From IMG/VR virus record IMGVR_UViG_3300033145_000771, positions 1 through 56,094 of that record: a stretch of DNA of 56,094 bases; one strand, written 5' to 3'. Positions 2,377 through 20,782 of this stretch are shown one piece after another. The notes below the pieces were generated by a model. The model had not been told where the DNA came from. It saw nothing but the letters and a program-made list of their open reading frames with translations, and made no database searches. Origin of the DNA: a virus. Lineage: Duplodnaviria; Caudoviricetes. Position 1 is the stretch's first letter. Each line of letters begins with the position of its first letter. The translations under genes were made by a program, and so were the position numbers.

Positions 2377-3354
2377 CTAATCTGTTCTTGCGTAACCTGC
2401 CATTGAATAACCTGTCAACTTGCCCTTCTTGATCGCTTTCCAGATCTTGTTGTCAAGTATTCTGGTAACTAATACCCATGAGCCTTTCTTGACCGACTTT
2501 CCTTCGATCACAAAGTCTACAGGAGCAAGATAGTTCTCCAGTATTCGTACCTTAACATTCTTACCTTTGTGCATCACCTTGAAGGTTTGTACTTTTTCCA
2601 TAAACTGATACGCAGCTTTACGGATTTCCTCTGCATTCGCTTCGTCGCCTTGACTGTCTTCTTCATCCGGCTCGTACACAATACCGTAGACAATGCGCTC
2701 CTCTTTCTTAGTAGCTTTAAGAAGAGGTATAAAAGACACTTCTTTCTCAAACATCGGCTTACCGAGTTTGGAAGAACTTTCTACTTTTGGCATTTCTACC
2801 TTCTCTACTTTACAAGCTGGACGCAAAACCTTATCGAACAATGGAATGCAGTCACCACTAAAATCGGTCGTATAGACAAACACACAAGGCTTATCAAGCT
2901 GTTCACCAAGCATCTTGGTAATCGATTCTTCTAAAACCTCGTTTGGCTCGTCTTCATTAGACCATATAACAACCTCTACATCGTCGTTCTCCGCGGTAGC
3001 GAAATCTTCTTTGATAAGCACGGCCACTTTATCTAAGACAATTGGTTTGAATTGAGCAATATCTAAACCGACTCTCTTTATCTCCATCGCTTTTTTGAAT
3101 GCCTGCCGATCGATTGGCTCAGTGCTGTTCTCTAAATCTCGATTACGCATTACTTTCAACAGCATTCTGTATTTCGCTATAACGTCATTACGGTTAAGAC
3201 TTCCAACAACAATATCTTCGCTCTTCTCAAAGTGTTTGTTCCATAGGCCCATGAATCTCAATTTAAGCACATGCAACTCTCTGTCAGAAGCTTTGTTCAA
3301 CTGTTCATGTTCCAAGTCTTCTATACGTAATTTAATCTTATCGAACATATTCAT
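2377..3354 (-). CDS. XkdF-like prohead serine protease core with long N-terminal extension
   Basis: IVYGIVYEPD..D.QGD, MH, ENYLAP, KKGSWVL, IKKGKLTGYSMAG motifs. Confidence 0.85.
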   Translation of the reverse strand: MNMFDKIKLRIEDLEHEQLNKASDRELHVLKLRFMGLWNKHFEKSEDIVVGSLNRNDVIAKYRMLLKVMRNRDLENSTEPIDRQAFKKAMEIKRVGLDIAQFKPIVLDKVAVLIKEDFATAENDDVEVVIWSNEDEPNEVLEESITKMLGEQLDKPCVFVYTTDFSGDCIPLFDKVLRPACKVEKVEMPKVESSSKLGKPMFEKEVSFIPLLKATKKEERIVYGIVYEPDEEDSQGDEANAEEIRKAAYQFMEKVQTFKVMHKGKNVKVRILENYLAPVDFVIEGKSVKKGSWVLVTRILDNKIWKAIKKGKLTGYSMAGYARTD

Positions 3355-5279
3355 TATCCTTTGATTTTTTGGTTTGGAACTCTATGTCTAACTTTCGGCT
3401 TTGCTACAACAGGCTTCGTAGGCTTAACCGTAGGTATCTTCCCAACAGGAGGTTTACCACTAAGCCCTCCTTTGTGACCAAGCTTGCGTAGAGCACGGCT
3501 GATCTTGCTTGATTCGGCAGGACCTGCCTCCTCTAATTTATTGAGCAGACTCTGCACTTGTCCATCATGCAGTCTATCCGGCATAATACACGATGCGTTT
3601 GCCACTTCTCCCGGAGACCCCTGGCAGGGAGGTAAATCATTAACAACGGGCAGCATGGCACATCGGCAATTATGACTTGCAATTCCATTAGCAATATAGT
3701 ATGATTCGGTTGTTTCTAAATTGTAAACATAATTACTGAAATTAAAGGAGTTGATATGTACAACCGAATCGACAAAGAAATCGTTACACAAATTGTCAAT
3801 TTGTACGTTTCCGGATGGTCCGAAAATAGTGTTGCTCTGCATTTTGGATATAGCAGACGCTGTATTCGCAAACGTCTTTTGGATTCCGGTATTCATATCA
3901 GGAACCAAAGCGAGGCCGAAGCACTCAAATGGTCGCAAATGAGTCTTGAGCAACGAAAGGAACAAATTAAAGCTGCTCATGATGCGGCTAAGGGTCGGAC
4001 TGTAAGCTGGTCTACCAAATGCAAACATGCAAAAACGGTCGAAAAGAGACCAAGCAATGTCTCTGAATACGAGATTGTTGTTCAACGAAAGCTGTTTGTT
4101 AGAGGCATTCCGACCATCGCTCAGAAGGCTATCGGTGCCTATAATTGCGATATTGCTGCCAGTCCCGTCATAGTGGAAGTCTGGGGCGGAAACTGGCACT
4201 TCTTTGGTGATCACGCCCGGCGATGCGAAGAACGACTCAGCTATATCCTCAATTGTGGTTGGTTTGTTTATATCCTGCCAATCACTAAAAGATTCCCCCT
4301 GACGGAGGCCATGGCTGATAACTTGGCTTCCTATATCAAGCGAATTCGCAGGGACAAACCCTCTATTCGAGAGTATAGGATGGTTTGGTGTGGCTCTGAT
4401 TATACGACCAGTGGCTGTCTTGATAATATGAATTTTCCCCTTGTACCAACGTTTACTGGCCGCCGTAATCCTGCCTCTGGGAGATATGAGAGAATCGCCC
4501 GGTAGGCAATTTGGGTGGACAGGTATTATCCCTTTTGCCTCCGCTGCGGAATATCTTGTTTCATCCAAACCTAAACAATCGCCACAAGCACCCGGAGAAG
4601 CTGAGAATTCAACTTCAGTGACTCCCACATCTTCTAAGCCTTGTACATAGCCTATATTCTGGGCACGGGCCGTTTCGGTCCGGGCTATGGTAGCTGCACG
4701 CCTTCGGTGGGTCTTGCCGGCATATCGCTGGACCTTCTTATTAATATCGGCCGGCTTTAACTTTGGATACTTTTCTTTGTTCTCAAGAAGCCTGCGATAA
4801 TTGATAATCGACTGCGTTTGATTCTCTGTCAAGCCTACTAAGGGACGGAGTTCGCGGGCAATTTTCGGCATTCCCCGGCCTTCCTTTATCCCGGTTTTAA
4901 TGTAGGTACGAATGCCCATCTTCGTTTTCTTCGTGACTTCTCGTACCAATTCAGCGGTAAATTTTTCAGCAGCAGTAACTGCATTGACATTAAGTACGTC
5001 AAAAGCACCCTTTACCTGAAGTAACTTATAGGCATTATTTCCGCCTGTCTGCATGATTTTTAATGTAGCGGGTTTAAGCATCTCCCGTCCACGTTCCTCG
5101 ATGAAACCCCAATCGGATAACTCGGATGTAATATCCTTAATAAATTTATGTGTTAAGTCGTGACGGATCTGCTTATGGGCAAAATAAAACCAACTACGCA
5201 CAGCAATTAGCATAGTATTCTTATTCCTGCCTACTAAGCTGCTTAAATCACTCTGAATTGTCTTAGCTATAGTAATCAC
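3354..5279 (-). CDS. Minor head morphogenesis protein (MuF/SPP1 gp7-like) containing an intein
   Basis: RAATIARTETARA, C-x2-C, and HPN|CRC motif split by an intein. Confidence 0.85.
   Translation of the reverse strand: MITIAKTIQSDLSSLVGRNKNTMLIAVRSWFYFAHKQIRHDLTHKFIKDITSELSDWGFIEERGREMLKPATLKIMQTGGNNAYKLLQVKGAFDVLNVNAVTAAEKFTAELVREVTKKTKMGIRTYIKTGIKEGRGMPKIARELRPLVGLTENQTQSIINYRRLLENKEKYPKLKPADINKKVQRYAGKTHRRRAATIARTETARAQNIGYVQGLEDVGVTEVEFSASPGACGDCLGLDETRYSAAEAKGIIPVHPNCLPGDSLISPRGRITAASKRWYKGKIHIIKTATGRIIRATPNHPILSNRGFVPANSLDIGSQVISHGLRQGESFSDWQDINKPTTIEDIAESFFASPGVITKEVPVSAPDFHYDGTGSNIAIIGTDSLLSDGRNASNKQLSLNNNLVFRDIAWSLFDRFCMFAFGRPAYSPTLSRIMSSFNLFLSLLKTHLRPFECFGLALVPDMNTGIQKTFANTASAISKMQSNTIFGPSGNVQIDNLCNDFFVDSVVHINSFNFSNYVYNLETTESYYIANGIASHNCRCAMLPVVNDLPPCQGSPGEVANASCIMPDRLHDGQVQSLLNKLEEAGPAESSKISRALRKLGHKGGLSGKPPVGKIPTVKPTKPVVAKPKVRHRVPNQKIKG
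3677..3705 (+). promoter_or_regulatory. Sigma70-like promoter for antisense endonuclease
   Basis: TTGCAA(3677-3682)-17 nt-TATGAT(3700-3705); AAGGAG RBS at 3745-3750. Confidence 0.6.
3756..4505 (+). CDS. HTH + Vsr/DUF559-like PD-(D/E)XK endonuclease, antisense inside the MuF intein
   Basis: HTH (LYVSGWSENSVALHFGYSRRCIRKRL); SEYE...YNCDIA..VIVEVWGGNWH...LNCGWFV; RBS and promoter. Confidence 0.8.
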   Translation: MYNRIDKEIVTQIVNLYVSGWSENSVALHFGYSRRCIRKRLLDSGIHIRNQSEAEALKWSQMSLEQRKEQIKAAHDAAKGRTVSWSTKCKHAKTVEKRPSNVSEYEIVVQRKLFVRGIPTIAQKAIGAYNCDIAASPVIVEVWGGNWHFFGDHARRCEERLSYILNCGWFVYILPITKRFPLTEAMADNLASYIKRIRRDKPSIREYRMVWCGSDYTTSGCLDNMNFPLVPTFTGRRNPASGRYERIAR

Positions 5280-16663: not shown

Positions 16664-17248
16664 ATGATTATGGAAATCAAGGTTTACATCCAAAAAATTA
16701 AAGAGCTTGGCGCGTGCGGTGAGGCACTGAAAGAAGCACTGGCGTATGAGACATCGGAAGAACTATGGGCCAATTGCAAACGTGGCGATTGGATGCTTTG
16801 GCTCGTCGGCAGATTGTCAGGAGCGGCTGGTTGTGAAAAACGAAAACAGTTGGCGCTTACTTCTTGCAAATGCGCCAGACTTTCTTTGCGATATATTCCG
16901 CAAAATGAATTACGGCCTTTGAAAGCCATTGAAACGGCCGAGCAATGGGCAAGGGGAGAAAATAGCGTGACCCTTAAAGACGTGCGAGCTGCTGCTGCTG
17001 CCGCTGCTTATGATACTGTTGCTGCTGCTGCTGCTTATGCTTCTGCTGCTGCTTATTCTGCTGCTGCTTATTCTGCTGCTGCTGCTTATTCTGCTGCTGC
17101 TTATGCTGCTTATGCTTCTGCTGCTGCCGCCGCTGCTTCGGATGCTGATGCTTATGCTGCTGCTGCTGATGCAAAGATCCTATCTCAATGTGCAGATATA
17201 GTCAGGGCGGACTATCTAGATGTTGATGATTTATGGAAAGAAGAATGA
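16664..17248 (+). CDS. Hypothetical protein with Ala/Tyr-rich repeat tract
   Basis: AAGGAG RBS; RGDWMLW, RPLKAIETAEQW, AAAY repeats. Confidence 0.75.
   Translation: MIMEIKVYIQKIKELGACGEALKEALAYETSEELWANCKRGDWMLWLVGRLSGAAGCEKRKQLALTSCKCARLSLRYIPQNELRPLKAIETAEQWARGENSVTLKDVRAAAAAAAYDTVAAAAAYASAAAYSAAAYSAAAAYSAAAYAAYASAAAAAASDADAYAAAADAKILSQCADIVRADYLDVDDLWKEE
16987..17172 (+). repeat. GCT-rich coding microsatellite
   Basis: (GCT)n with TAT/TCT interruptions. Confidence 0.85.
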
Positions 17249-18636: not shown

Positions 18637-18712
18637 GCGGATCCCTGAGTTTCTTCCTACATCCCTTACACTGGCATAAAAACTGCCTGGATTGTTGTGC
18701 TTTGCGTCTCAT
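18506..18712 (-). CDS. Small Zn-binding protein
   Basis: C..C...WCS.RC; ATGA overlap with MTase stop. Confidence 0.5.
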   Translation of the reverse strand: MRRKAQQSRQFLCQCKGCRKKLRDPLDNPIYLPDEDEYWCSQRCMDSVDPARREAKQNAKTLDKPYNV

Positions 18713-19494
18713 TCGAATAACGCTCCTAATGTCCTAATCGCCTTTTCCGCTTGAGCAGGAATTACCCCGTTGCCCAGGAGCCTAAGTCTGTCCATCCAAT
18801 AGGCAAGCCCATCATCCATTCTCGGAACATCGGAGATTTCTCTAAGTCTCGGCGGCCAAGGTGGAGGAGTACATCTCGTAATTTTGGTCCGCGTCGTAAT
18901 CCGCTCGTTTTGCTTATACGAGACCAAGTATTCCCCTCTGTAATTACTGGGCAACTGCCCCCCTGGGATTCCGCTGTTCGTGGCGTTGGCAAGCACAAAT
19001 AGCCGTTGCCGTGTCGCCGGGGCTCCAACTTCCCACGCTGTAAACAGTCCTGCCTCAACTGAGTAACCCATATTTCGTAGGCTTCGATAAACTTCGGGGA
19101 ATCCGAGGGTAAGGTGTCCGGCGACGTTCTCGAAGACGCACCAAACAGGTCTAACTGCCTCGACGATTCGAGCAATATGCGGCCAAAGGTGTCGGGGATC
19201 GTCGGTTCCCTGTCTCTTGCCAGCGAGGCTGAACGGCTGGCACGGAAATCCTCCCATAACGATGTCCACCCGTCCTCGAAAAGGCTCCGCATTGAAGGTT
19301 TTAAGATCCGTCCAGATAGGTGCTGCATCCATTTTACCCGCTTCAATCTTTGAAACCAAGTTCGCGCAAGCGAACATTTCGATCTCCACATAGCAGATTG
19401 TTCTAAGAGAGGGCATAACTCTTTTGACTCCAAGCTCAAGACCTCCATAGCCCGTGCAGAGGGATAAACAGGTAAATTCTTTGGTAAAATCCAC
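18709..19494 (-). CDS. C5 cytosine DNA methyltransferase, main polypeptide (likely GTG start 19494)
   Basis: Motif I SLCTGYGG, IV GGFPCQPFS, VI ENV, VIII RQRLF, X LLGNGV; motif IX absent from this frame. Confidence 0.9.
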   Translation of the reverse strand: MDFTKEFTCLSLCTGYGGLELGVKRVMPSLRTICYVEIEMFACANLVSKIEAGKMDAAPIWTDLKTFNAEPFRGRVDIVMGGFPCQPFSLAGKRQGTDDPRHLWPHIARIVEAVRPVWCVFENVAGHLTLGFPEVYRSLRNMGYSVEAGLFTAWEVGAPATRQRLFVLANATNSGIPGGQLPSNYRGEYLVSYKQNERITTRTKITRCTPPPWPPRLREISDVPRMDDGLAYWMDRLRLLGNGVIPAQAEKAIRTLGALFE

Positions 19495-19496
19495 AT
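18762..19496 (-). CDS. Alternative-frame methyltransferase subunit carrying motif IX
   Basis: 244-codon overlapping frame ending SPMFREWMMGLPIGWT. Confidence 0.7.
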   Translation of the reverse strand: MWILPKNLPVYPSARAMEVLSLESKELCPLLEQSAMWRSKCSLARTWFQRLKRVKWMQHLSGRILKPSMRSLFEDGWTSLWEDFRASRSASLARDREPTIPDTFGRILLESSRQLDLFGASSRTSPDTLPSDSPKFIEAYEIWVTQLRQDCLQRGKLEPRRHGNGYLCLPTPRTAESQGGSCPVITEGNTWSRISKTSGLRRGPKLRDVLLHLGRRDLEKSPMFREWMMGLPIGWTDLGSWATG

Positions 19497-19996
19497 TAGT
19501 TCTTGACACCTGTCAACCTTTCTATTATTGTAATAGTATTTATGAAAGGAATACGATGAGTTGTATACCAGATATTAAAACTACCAAGAAAATGTATAAG
19601 CTTTATCAACAGGGATTTAGTTTGGCTCAAGTAGGAAAAGCGTTTGGAGTAAGCAGACAAGCAGTATATGACCGCTTTCATGTTCGCAATCTTGAGTTGC
19701 GCACAGTCAAGCCATTGCCATTTATTATGTTTGAAGGCAAAAAATATACGCGTAGAAAATTGGGATATTATGCCTGCACTAACGGCGACAGACACTACCT
19801 GCATCGAGTTATATGGAAGTCTATAAATGGCAAAATACCACCAGGTTATGACATTCACCATATAGATGGTGATAGAACCAATAATCATATTGATAATCTT
19901 GAATTGATTACAAAATCTGAACATTCGTCTAAATATCCTCACCACAAAAATCAGTACACAAGCTGATACATCTAAGTTCTTCGGTATTATCCACAT
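19496..19996 (-). CDS. Open frame from duplicated MTase 5' end through the antisense of the HNH (possible coupling ORF)
   Basis: Starts MWIIPKNL; its TAA overlaps ATG of MWILPKNL (TAATG). Confidence 0.45.
   Translation of the reverse strand: MWIIPKNLDVSACVLIFVVRIFRRMFRFCNQFKIINMIIGSITIYMVNVITWWYFAIYRLPYNSMQVVSVAVSAGIISQFSTRIFFAFKHNKWQWLDCAQLKIANMKAVIYCLSAYSKRFSYLSQTKSLLIKLIHFLGSFNIWYTTHRIPFINTITIIERLTGVKN
19503..19531 (+). promoter_or_regulatory. Sigma70-like promoter for HNH, -35 within a palindrome
   Basis: TTGACA-17 nt-TATTGT; TTGACA-CC-TGTCAA; GAAAGGA RBS before ATG 19556. Confidence 0.6.
19556..19966 (+). CDS. HTH + HNH endonuclease, antisense, inserted at MTase 5' end
   Basis: GFSLAQVGKAFGVSRQAVY; YLHRVIW...DIHHIDGDRTNNHIDNLEL. 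Confidence 0.9.
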   Translation: MSCIPDIKTTKKMYKLYQQGFSLAQVGKAFGVSRQAVYDRFHVRNLELRTVKPLPFIMFEGKKYTRRKLGYYACTNGDRHYLHRVIWKSINGKIPPGYDIHHIDGDRTNNHIDNLELITKSEHSSKYPHHKNQYTS

Positions 19997-20004
19997 TCCA
20001 GCCC

Positions 20005-20199
20005 CTATTCCAGCGCCTTTATCACCAACTGTATGCAGTCATGGGTTATAACAGACTGTCCAGCGAGCAAAGCTTCGTCGGCTTGCCGTAATATCGTAAC
20101 AGATTCTCTTACCTCTTTAACCATCTCGGCCAACAACTCGTTAATCTTCCAGAGCTTCTCTGCGTTTTCCAATGTATTCTGAGTCAATATTGTATCCAT
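20005..20199 (-). CDS. Hypothetical protein
   Basis: Packed in operon. Confidence 0.55.
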   Translation of the reverse strand: MDTILTQNTLENAEKLWKINELLAEMVKEVRESVTILRQADEALLAGQSVITHDCIQLVIKALE

Positions 20200-20782
20200 T
20201 TTTTATTGCCCCTTCCAGTTTTCTAACTATTACCAACATTTCGTCGAGGTCGGGCTTCACGCTCGGATCATCCCTGTGCAGTTCGAACCAGGCCCATTGC
20301 TCCTTATGAGTTTTTTTCATCCAATCAGCGAACCGCTCTACGACGTCTGTCGCTCCGTGTGCTGCGATATCGCTCCCGAGGGCATGATAGTATGCGTTGA
20401 GGCATATTCCGTTCTCTACCGTCCACCTGTGGCTTAGGTTGCCCCTATGAATTAAATGGTGCGCCTCCAGATTGTCTGTTTTGTTAGAATAAGCACACTT
20501 CCAGCCGAACCTGACCTTGACAGCCGAAGACCACAACGAATCCGCCAGTGTGATCAGATGCTTGCGTATAGCGGCACGAATGCTGACTTTGGTGATCTTA
20601 GGGGATTTCACCCTGATCTTTGCATGAATCTCGTCAATGCCAGCACCACCCTTGTACAGCTTCGTGATAAAGCCCTTAGTTCCTGGTTTCATTTTTGCCA
20701 TCCTTGGCCTCCAATTCCTTTTCGTGGATGTTGCTGATGACTTCAAACCATTTATCCGCATCGTATAAACAATGGACTTCAT
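20141..20782 (-). CDS. NinG-like HNH-fold nuclease (likely start MAKMKP)
   Basis: ADSLWS..VK....C....NLEAHH.I.R.....RW..ENGICL. Confidence 0.65.
   Translation of the reverse strand: MKSIVYTMRINGLKSSATSTKRNWRPRMAKMKPGTKGFITKLYKGGAGIDEIHAKIRVKSPKITKVSIRAAIRKHLITLADSLWSSAVKVRFGWKCAYSNKTDNLEAHHLIHRGNLSHRWTVENGICLNAYYHALGSDIAAHGATDVVERFADWMKKTHKEQWAWFELHRDDPSVKPDLDEMLVIVRKLEGAIKNGYNIDSEYIGKRREALED

Follow-up and report, generated by a model that had tools for sequence, protein, structure and literature searches.

To our knowledge, homing endonuclease genes are thought to persist in coding sequence only by way of introns or inteins, between genes, or through occasional gene splitting. Here we describe an HNH endonuclease gene lying antisense in the 5′ end of a predicted C5 cytosine DNA methyltransferase (methylase) gene in IMG/VR record IMGVR_UViG_3300033145_000771. 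The record is a complete viral one, 56,094 bp long and bounded by direct terminal repeats; it was analysed over its whole length and is referred to as the window. The fungal mitochondrial elements known as mORFs, which replace C-termini, appear to be the closest analogue of this arrangement. In atp6 of Allomyces macrogynus and in atp6, atp9, cox2 and nad3 of Glomus, the mORFs bring in a foreign C-terminus and leave the native one behind as a remnant; the native C-terminus is 91–98% identical to endonuclease-free relatives, compared with 64–81% to the inserted copy (PMC3630166). The window locus shares with them the intronless entry into a coding gene and the foreign terminus, its remnant being 92.9% identical to an endonuclease-free relative and 69% (31/45) identical to the working copy. 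It differs in replacing the 5′ instead of the 3′ end and in belonging to a phage and not a mitochondrion; the enzyme is of the HNH rather than the LAGLIDADG or GIY-YIG type, and its gene is antisense instead of in phase with the host gene. The displaced start, furthermore, would still fire, needing a stop-free bridge and a stop–start overlap, and nothing like this occurs in the accessible part of PMC3630166. The case may show that phages have an additional solution, one that mirrors the C-terminal replacement of fungal mitochondria.

The free-standing endonucleases Seg and Mob of T4-like phages, together with intronless homing and gene splitting, are covered by the review PMC2988022, in which the UAAUGA stop–start at nrdA/mobE is discussed as a translational coupling that limits endonuclease expression. 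Like Seg and Mob, the window HNH gene has its own expression signals and lies next to a conserved gene, with presumed cutting of the endonuclease-free allele and co-conversion of a resistant flank. Coupling in T4 restrains the endonuclease, whereas here the antisense strand of the endonuclease gene would be translated to serve the host gene. The genes-in-pieces made by endonucleases, such as mobE in nrdA of Aeromonas phage Aeh1 and mobA in T4 gene 60 (PMC2988022), give proteins split into two reassembling polypeptides, unlike the window methylase, which is whole and has its 5′ end supplied anew. The word "duplication" does not occur in the accessible part of that review, and a search of the open-access literature returned no description of 5′-end replacement by phage endonucleases.

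We consider it roughly 70% probable that the window holds a free-standing HNH_3 homing endonuclease gene that sits antisense in the methylase 5′ end at motif I, travels with a replacement 5′ end, and hands over ribosomes through a stop-free bridge. At the level of nucleotide sequence, the analysis demonstrated the architecture of the locus, its recurrence, the avoidance of stop codons, the stop–start overlap, the allelic origin of the two 5′ copies and a patchy distribution. Comparisons were made with 160 related loci, collected in two scans with the methylase alignment (80 viral and 80 metagenomic; 146 distinct by their first 400 nt), the homologues being drawn from related environmental samples.

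The methylase gene (18709–19509, minus strand, frame 0) encodes 266 amino acids (aa) from GTG 19509 or, more likely, 261 aa from GTG 19494, and its product matches PF00145 with an E value of 2.2e-32. A single frame holds motifs I (LSLCTGYGG), IV (PCQ), VI (ENV), VIII and X (GNGV), which are invariant in the alignments, and residues 14–174 align with residues 3–160 of M.HaeIII. GTG 19509 was rejected as a general methylase start, as stops come after it in three of the related loci (L209, L081 and L212). The same strand carries an overlapping gene in the +1 frame (18762–19496; 244 aa, MWILPKNL...EWMMGLPIGWTDL; phrog_1008), which is considered further below.

The HNH gene lies on the plus strand (19556–19966) and encodes a protein of 136 aa with an N-terminal helix-turn-helix; its open reading frame (ORF) is open from 19454, and the start MSCIPD is kept in homologues. 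The protein matches PF13392 HNH_3 (E 6.6e-20, above cut-off) and phrog_99 (8.8e-20). Homologues also contain the HNH_3 domain (E 1.4e-10 to 1.6e-20), and HTH_7 scores above cut-off in those of L165, L179 and L209. A promoter-like site for the gene (19503–19531, plus strand; TTGACA, 17 nt, TATTGT; 10/12) has its −35 box, 17-nt spacer and TAnnnT-like −10 box present in 8/8 homologous loci, and AAAGGA is found 6 nt upstream of the HNH ATG. The insert has a GC content of 0.34–0.42 (about 0.35–0.42 for the HNH gene itself), compared with 0.44–0.58 for the methylase body. The initial annotation had called the element non-splicing, in agreement with both the Rfam search and the orientation of the genes. 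No Rfam family, self-splicing RNAs included, was matched at E≤1 on either strand of 19000–20500, which speaks against a group I or II intron, and an intein is ruled out by the location of the HNH ORF on the plus strand and the methylase on the minus strand. Splicing would also be unnecessary, because the new 5′ end is complete.

Two methylase 5′ ends are present, on either side of the HNH gene. The outer one is the remnant of a resident VDNT-type 5′ end (19953–19996, minus strand), with ATG 19996 opening the +1 frame (MWIIPKNL) and GTG 19994 the methylase frame (VDNTEELRCISLCT). Similarity is lost after LCT, within motif I, where the remnant had been said to break, and its methylase frame reaches a stop 7 codons on; read on the plus strand, the remnant forms the final codons and TGA of the HNH gene. 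A G-rich, Shine-Dalgarno-like stretch (AGGGGCTGGA; 19997–20006, minus strand), read from the sequence and paralleled by G-rich stretches at equal distance from the starts in L001 and L003, may have served the original methylase start and now serve the ORF that begins at the remnant. The inner one is the replacement 5′ end beside the HNH gene (19452–19496, minus strand; VDFTKEFTCLSLCT / MWILPKNLPV), within a segment (19496–19440) that encodes VDFTKEFTCLSLCTGYGG in the methylase frame and MWILPKNL in the +1 frame. It is identical to the remnant at 31/45 positions without gaps, which is more than chance would give, as no other match on either strand of the window exceeds 25/45.

Every element that the initial annotation had placed in this region is present in the sequence. 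Its proposal of a duplicated 5′ end was right as to the existence of a second copy and wrong as to a duplication, since the copies differ in allelic origin and represent a replacement. Over 42 nt, the remnant and the 5′ end of the HNH-free loci L001/L002 share 92.9% identity (E 9e-11), while the working copy resembles the N-terminus of L003 (VDFTKEF), indicating that the two copies come from different alleles. Downstream of its 5′ end, the working methylase shares 76.3% identity with L001 (460 nt) and 79.0% with L003. A remnant so close to an HNH-free relative, and matching the working copy at only 31/45 positions, argues for replacement over duplication.

Analysis by tblastn of 161 sequences (the 160 loci and the window) detected a second copy of the N-terminus and motif I in seven, with an endonuclease gene between the copies every time. 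Four more loci have shorter remnants (L194, L179, L081 and L203), and all four also contain an endonuclease gene. No endonuclease-free locus with two 5′ copies was seen among the 161 sequences at the tblastn sensitivity used, consistent with the earlier expectation that HNH-free relatives lack the double 5′ copy.

From the remnant ATG, a bridge ORF of 166 codons (19496–19996, minus strand) runs through the whole HNH gene in antisense, codon-aligned with it, to TAA 19498–19496. This stop is part of a TAATG (19494–19498, minus strand) in which it overlaps ATG 19496–19494 of the +1 gene, followed by the methylase GTG at 19494–19492. The initial annotation had correctly described a 166-codon MWIIPKNL frame ending in TAATG on the new start; that ATG is, however, the start of the +1 frame, and the methylase GTG lies 2 nt on.

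The arrangement recurs in related loci. Full-length HNH homologues (61–72% identity by tblastn) lie antisense and directly upstream of the methylase in 8/160 loci, namely L163, L209, L081, L194, L160, L165, L179 and L212; L160 and L165 are near-copies, and contig ends truncate L160 and L212 (L212 at 22 aa). In all seven assessable cases, window included, a remnant is accompanied by a bridge ORF of 160–237+ codons that traverses the entire HNH gene in antisense, supporting the earlier proposal that a replacement 5′ end is supplied with the HNH gene at motif I, rather than splicing. The junction is TAATG in 6/9 loci, and in the others TAA ends 2 nt (L163, L179) or 5 nt (L081) before the ATG. For the window, L165 and L081, the bridge starts from the remnant's +1 frame; for L163, L209, L194 and L179 it starts from the methylase frame. 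This switch is probably due to small deletions in the motif I core, the window junction being like that of L163 minus 14 nt and the L194 junction like that of L163 minus 12 nt. In L081, positions 1–260 hold tandem repeats of about 30 nt (RSPGLRGAAQ in one frame), with several frames open, in place of the 5′ part of the remnant.

Tight stop–start junctions are also found in the native context. Of 99 endonuclease-free loci, 62 have an upstream ORF (at least 40 codons) whose end falls between −20 and +8 nt from the same start, and 34 of these 62 lie at offsets −3, −2 (TAATG/TGATG) or +7, whatever the upstream gene. The bridge ORF therefore restores an arrangement that is frequent in loci free of the endonuclease.

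An open frame antisense to a gene requires that the gene avoid the codons TTA, CTA and TCA in the aligned phase. Of the 9 Leu and 8 Ser codons in the window HNH gene, not one is TTA, CTA or TCA; with the 27% usage seen in GC-matched control HNH genes, the probability of an open antisense frame arising by chance is ~0.005. Across the methylase-linked HNH genes (n=7), TTA, CTA or TCA account for 0/117 Leu and Ser codons, compared with 188/690 in the controls (20 HNH relatives with GC 0.35–0.55), and the per-gene chance of an open antisense frame is 0.002–0.02. The antisense frame is open in 7/7 full-length methylase-associated HNH genes, compared with 0/35 distinct HNH relatives elsewhere (median 10 stops), and it ends at the next start in 9/9 loci; it is not routinely closed in homologues, as anticipated. 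Four-fold sites of the HNH genes are near saturation (mean identity 0.37), so that the codon choices have been re-drawn many times and were not simply inherited. On these codon counts, the open antisense frame of methylase-linked HNH genes is under selection.

The protein encoded by the bridge follows a different pattern. Bridge products share 32–46% identity with that of the window in full-length matches, where the HNH proteins share 61–72%, and the first positions of bridge codons, which are the third positions of HNH codons, differ at 0.44–0.68, like unconstrained third positions. The bridge protein is therefore not conserved; what is kept in the bridge ORF, as judged from these alignments, is its openness and the position of its stop, not its protein sequence.

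Other endonucleases occupy the same site. Three further HNH families occur on the same strand as the methylase, flanked in every instance by a VDNT-type remnant and a complete new 5′ end: phrog_8446 at or near motif I in L097 (1820–2434) and L210 (84–524), phrog_3377 at or near motif I in L208 (457–1026), and PF01844 inserted after about codon 42 in L203 (212–736). In each of these families the endonuclease ORF ends on the new start, and that of L097 continues the reading frame of the remnant. L208 and L209 have one remnant peptide (NVDNTETINVLSLCTGYG) in common, beside different endonucleases. The sharing of the remnant-plus-new-5′-end layout by several HNH families indicates that 5′ replacement is a general strategy at this methylase gene. 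On the contig that also bears L075 and L214, L004 has an AP2/HNH_3-like ORF (3024–3629; both domains below Pfam cut-offs) in sense orientation, ~270 nt upstream of an HNH-free methylase; it is accompanied by no remnant and has the appearance of an ordinary intergenic endonuclease next to this gene.

Comparison of 5′ ends points to the alleles that may serve as targets. Among distinct endonuclease-free alleles, 59/131 start VDN[T/P/S], and one starts like the window working copy. All six readable remnants start RTGTGG(A/C)T(A/G)AT(A/T)CC, the nucleotide form of this VDN[T/P/S] majority, a form absent from the distinct HNH-linked working copies (0/8), five of which are of the VDxSK type and three of the (M/L)DVxT type. 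We infer from these alleles that the enzyme recognises the majority allele across motif I, with the remnant keeping the left half-site and the working copy having a diverged left half.

The HNH gene is patchily distributed among homologous methylase loci, being present in some and absent from others. On a FastTree tree of 140 catalytic domains, in which many forks are weakly supported, the HNH-bearing state requires at least 7 changes, and starred forks place L209 beside the HNH-free L075 and L179 beside the HNH-free L197. No pre-insertion version of the window phage was found among the relatives. Among cultured phages (50,697 phage records), the best methylase match had less than 60% identity, and no close relative of the HNH gene was found.

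These observations are consistent with the following mechanism. The HNH gene, with its own promoter, would neither splice nor split the methylase, and would bring with it start codons and about 15 codons up to motif I. The enzyme would cut endonuclease-free VDNT-type alleles near motif I, and repair would copy both the HNH gene and the new 5′ end out of the donor, the homology arms being the old 5′ end (left) and the methylase body (right). Through its use as the left arm, the old 5′ end would persist as a remnant of 42–55 nt with its native ribosome-binding site and start codons. Neither copy would be recut, because the right half-site is missing from the remnant and the left one has probably diverged in the new copy. 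Ribosomes loading at the orphaned native start would otherwise halt within the antisense HNH gene, and the avoidance of TTA, CTA and TCA would prevent this, resulting in a bridge ORF of 160–240 codons with its TAA on or beside the new start (TAATG). The bridge would keep the transcript translated and pass ribosomes to the new start by termination–reinitiation. That start is the one of the conserved +1 gene, and with the methylase start 2–5 nt on, both products could be served.

Several points weigh against this mechanism. The seven HNH-bearing loci are mutually related and hence do not amount to seven fully independent trials. The remnant junctions vary by locus, falling after LC, LCT, GYG, GYGGL or ELALKRV; this could fit later small deletions or, alternatively, non-homologous joining at each invasion, which would weaken the left-arm step. 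L003/L065 carries a replacement-type 5′ end with no HNH gene, so that this type of 5′ end may simply be a natural allele. The 52 loci retrieved by the HNH protein alone match just the HNH domain (34–67% identity), and no relative of either the methylase or the +1 protein is encoded in any of them, limiting the methylase link to this HNH subgroup. The relatives are all metagenomic contigs, and it is from comparison that cleavage, homing, immunity and reinitiation are deduced. A look-up of sequencing runs listed no RNA run for 19300–20200 and one DNA run with a small share of its sequence words. Finally, a GAAAGG 7 nt before GTG 19509 could give the window methylase frame an independent start, although the stops that follow this GTG in L209, L081 and L212 mean that such a start is not general.

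This last point bears on the strongest alternative, which we regard as unlikely but deserving of serious consideration: that the bridge matters only in protecting the operon transcript from Rho-dependent termination or decay, with the methylase and +1 gene using their own ribosome-binding sites. In line with this, the GAAAGG is kept as GAAAGG, GAACGG or GAATGG in other loci, and in 3/9 loci TAA ends 2–5 nt ahead of the ATG with no overlap. The same hexamer, however, forms part of the HNH promoter spacer on the other strand, giving its conservation another cause, and its GTG is followed by stops in the three loci named above. Stop and start are at most 8 nt apart in 9/9 loci and overlap as TAATG in 6/9, a precision that would be needless for protection against polarity, and the same tight juxtaposition is found in native loci (34/99).

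An improbable alternative is an immobile cassette whose HNH protein has been domesticated; it could, for instance, regulate by binding at its own promoter and at the methylase start. Methylase loss and recombination would then account for the patchy distribution. An inverted repeat, TTGACA-GG-TGTCAA (19503–19516), overlaps the −35 box and GTG 19509, about 5 nt upstream of the methylase starts, and is kept with variations in 9 HNH-bearing loci; speculatively, it may be an operator for the helix-turn-helix of the HNH protein. This repeat, the N-terminal helix-turn-helix with its HTH_7 matches above cut-off in L165, L179 and L209, and the failure to find near-identical copies in different backbones would all suit domestication. 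The HNH_3 catalytic domain is nevertheless well conserved (E 1e-10 to 1e-20, 5/5 tested), the remnants match the endonuclease-free majority allele while the linked working copies never do, and other HNH families are found at the same site, as expected of a homing hotspot.

It is very improbable that the 166-codon ORF encodes a functional, perhaps membrane, protein kept open by ordinary purifying selection. Its product is hydrophobic and has a weak match to BofA (E 0.0018, below the Pfam cut-off), but hydrophobicity is expected for the reverse complement of a gene rich in Lys, Glu and Asn codons. No PHROG match was obtained, the bridge proteins diverge well beyond the HNH proteins (32–46% against 61–72% identity), their first codon positions vary at the 0.44–0.68 of unconstrained HNH third positions, and the N-terminal frame differs between loci.

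The least probable reading, that of an ordinary intergenic endonuclease beside debris of an old illegitimate recombination, with the open frame and TAATG a chance or inherited accident, can draw on the commonness of free-standing HNH genes between phage genes (PMC2988022, accessible part) and on the remnant-free ORF of L004, and is opposed by the codon counts (0/117 against 188/690), the open frames (7/7 against 0/35), the saturated synonymous sites of the HNH genes, the four unrelated HNH families with the same remnant-plus-new-5′-end layout, and the lack of any endonuclease-free locus with two 5′ copies among the sequences searched.

The methylase gene into which the HNH gene appears to have inserted is itself unusual in its coding. 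In 129 of 130 distinct relatives with both frames bounded (38–78% identical to the window), the +1 frame remains open for 80% or more of the length of the methylase; the +2 frame reaches 50% in 3 of the 130. Synonymous-codon shuffles gave P≤0.0005 for the +1 frame in 6/6 genes, including those of Paenibacillus phage Diva and phage C75C1, and values as expected for the +2 frame. Four-fold-site identity is 0.62 in the methylase compared with 0.37 in the adjacent HNH gene for the same locus pairs, the methylase being higher in 20/21. Selection on the +1 peptide is also indicated at the two 5′ ends of the window: six of the first ten +1 codons differ between the copies, four of them synonymously, while all four changed codons of the methylase frame alter the residue. 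In relatives, the dual coding is located at 3939–4943 in L001, 4002–4910 in L003 and 3987–5012 in L004. The starts of the two frames lie 2 nt apart (RTG-TG-GAT), or 5 nt in the MDVxT type, so that a ribosome released at the TAA could restart in either frame.

The +1 product matches phrog_1008 with E 1.7e-11 for the window and down to 1.5e-25 in relatives, and has 1827 relatives at E≤0.001 among predicted proteins, with no Pfam domain among the 120 matches listed. With a profile of the +1 product, nothing was matched in PDB at E≤10 or in Pfam at E≤1, and an atlas search yielded only unnamed clusters, most of them viral. A possible likeness of its C-terminal LNPxWVEQLMGLPxGWT to methylase motif IX was without support from any search. 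AF2 prediction of the +1 protein alone yielded a weak model, mostly of helices (pLDDT 62.7, pTM 0.28). A model of the complex of the two products, in contrast, scored 0.87 against 0.02 for the best control; the mark was reached by 58/80 solved complexes and 2/110 mismatched pairs. Three runs agreed in at least 73% of contacts, with a partner pLDDT of at least 73. Contacts near the diagonal may be an artefact, because both alignments come from the same DNA; the strongest contacts, between +1 residues 2–5 and methylase residues 43–62, are far off the diagonal. The modelling supports, without proving, binding of the +1 product to the methylase.

The closest described counterparts of this overlap are gp49 ("DNA-cytosine methyltransferase") and gp50 of Paenibacillus phage Diva, with phrog_363 and phrog_1008, which belong to the same methylase clade and have the same +1 internal ORF. 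Diva-type phages differ in having no endonuclease insertion, and there the overlap is known as an annotation, gp50 being labelled only "g49 internal gene"; no description of a methylase internal gene or overlap was found in the open-access literature. M.AquI is a C5 methyltransferase made of two polypeptides from ORFs that overlap only at their ends. It needs two gene products, as the present enzyme may do, for which L199, L204 and L208, with a motif X match in the +1 frame, may be compared; it differs in that the two frames here overlap over nearly the whole gene, with starts 2–5 nt apart. In L072, L107, L109 and L197, frame 0 ends after the catalytic domain and the +1 ORF continues for 370–1070 nt. 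Together with the motif X matches, this suggests that part of the clade has an enzyme of two subunits or one made by frameshifting. Among conserved same-strand gene overlaps in phages, that of the methylase gene is a strong candidate for one of the longest. This dual coding would be a second and possibly larger finding, bearing on the origin of methyltransferase specificity subunits and on overlapping genes missed by annotation pipelines.

Taken together with the dual-coding target, the locus may illustrate a third way for phage endonucleases to persist within conserved coding sequence, alongside introns or inteins and gene splitting, a broader proposal to which we give even odds. Its components would be a cleavage-resistant 5′ "exon", an orphaned 5′ end serving as a portable homology arm, self-recoding of the endonuclease gene when antisense, which frees its opposite strand of stops and lets ribosomes cross it to restart at the new start, and a full-length dual-coding target whose two products, with starts 2–5 nt apart, form one enzyme. 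Such a scheme would explain how the 5′ end keeps MWI(I/L)PKNL while the DNA beneath it changes. We found no earlier description of a selfish gene whose codon usage is shaped by its backward translation, preserving the translational coupling of the host gene, as proposed here. The feature would leave a signature that can be sought cheaply and genome-wide, namely an antisense gene that is devoid of TTA, CTA and TCA and has the remnant of a gene on one side and its intact copy on the other. It also lends itself to a clean experiment, since synonymous changes to HNH codons close the bridge and leave the nuclease unchanged.

The window methylase appears mosaic (18709–19036, minus strand): its first 175 residues are nearest to those of L145, L160 and L165 (74–79%), and its short C-terminal half resembles the short forms in L142, L144 and L154, without the WPARPGQPQYEWEEPRVV block of L001, L003 and L004. 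Identity of at least 80% is confined to ~510 nt of the methylase catalytic domain, and flanking genes are common neither to the window and L001–L004 nor among the HNH-bearing loci.

On the minus strand of the window, the gene order is two YopX-like ORFs, a 213-aa ORF, a 64-aa ORF, the methylase/HNH region and small zinc-finger-like ORFs, and a serine recombinase gene lies on the plus strand of the same neighbourhood. The 64-aa ORF (20005–20199, minus strand), which has no family match, belongs to the early operon, and its TAG (20007–20005) lies 8 nt before the remnant ATG. The 213-aa ORF (20141–20782, minus strand) overlaps it by 59 nt; no Pfam match at E≤0.01 or PHROG match at E≤0.001 was obtained for this ORF, in which an HNH-like stretch (EAHHLIHRGN...NGICLNAYYH) was recognised by eye. 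On the plus strand, a 194-aa ORF (16664–17248) has an alanine-rich, repetitive C-terminal half, and the other frames there hold long Leu-rich and Gln-rich ORFs.

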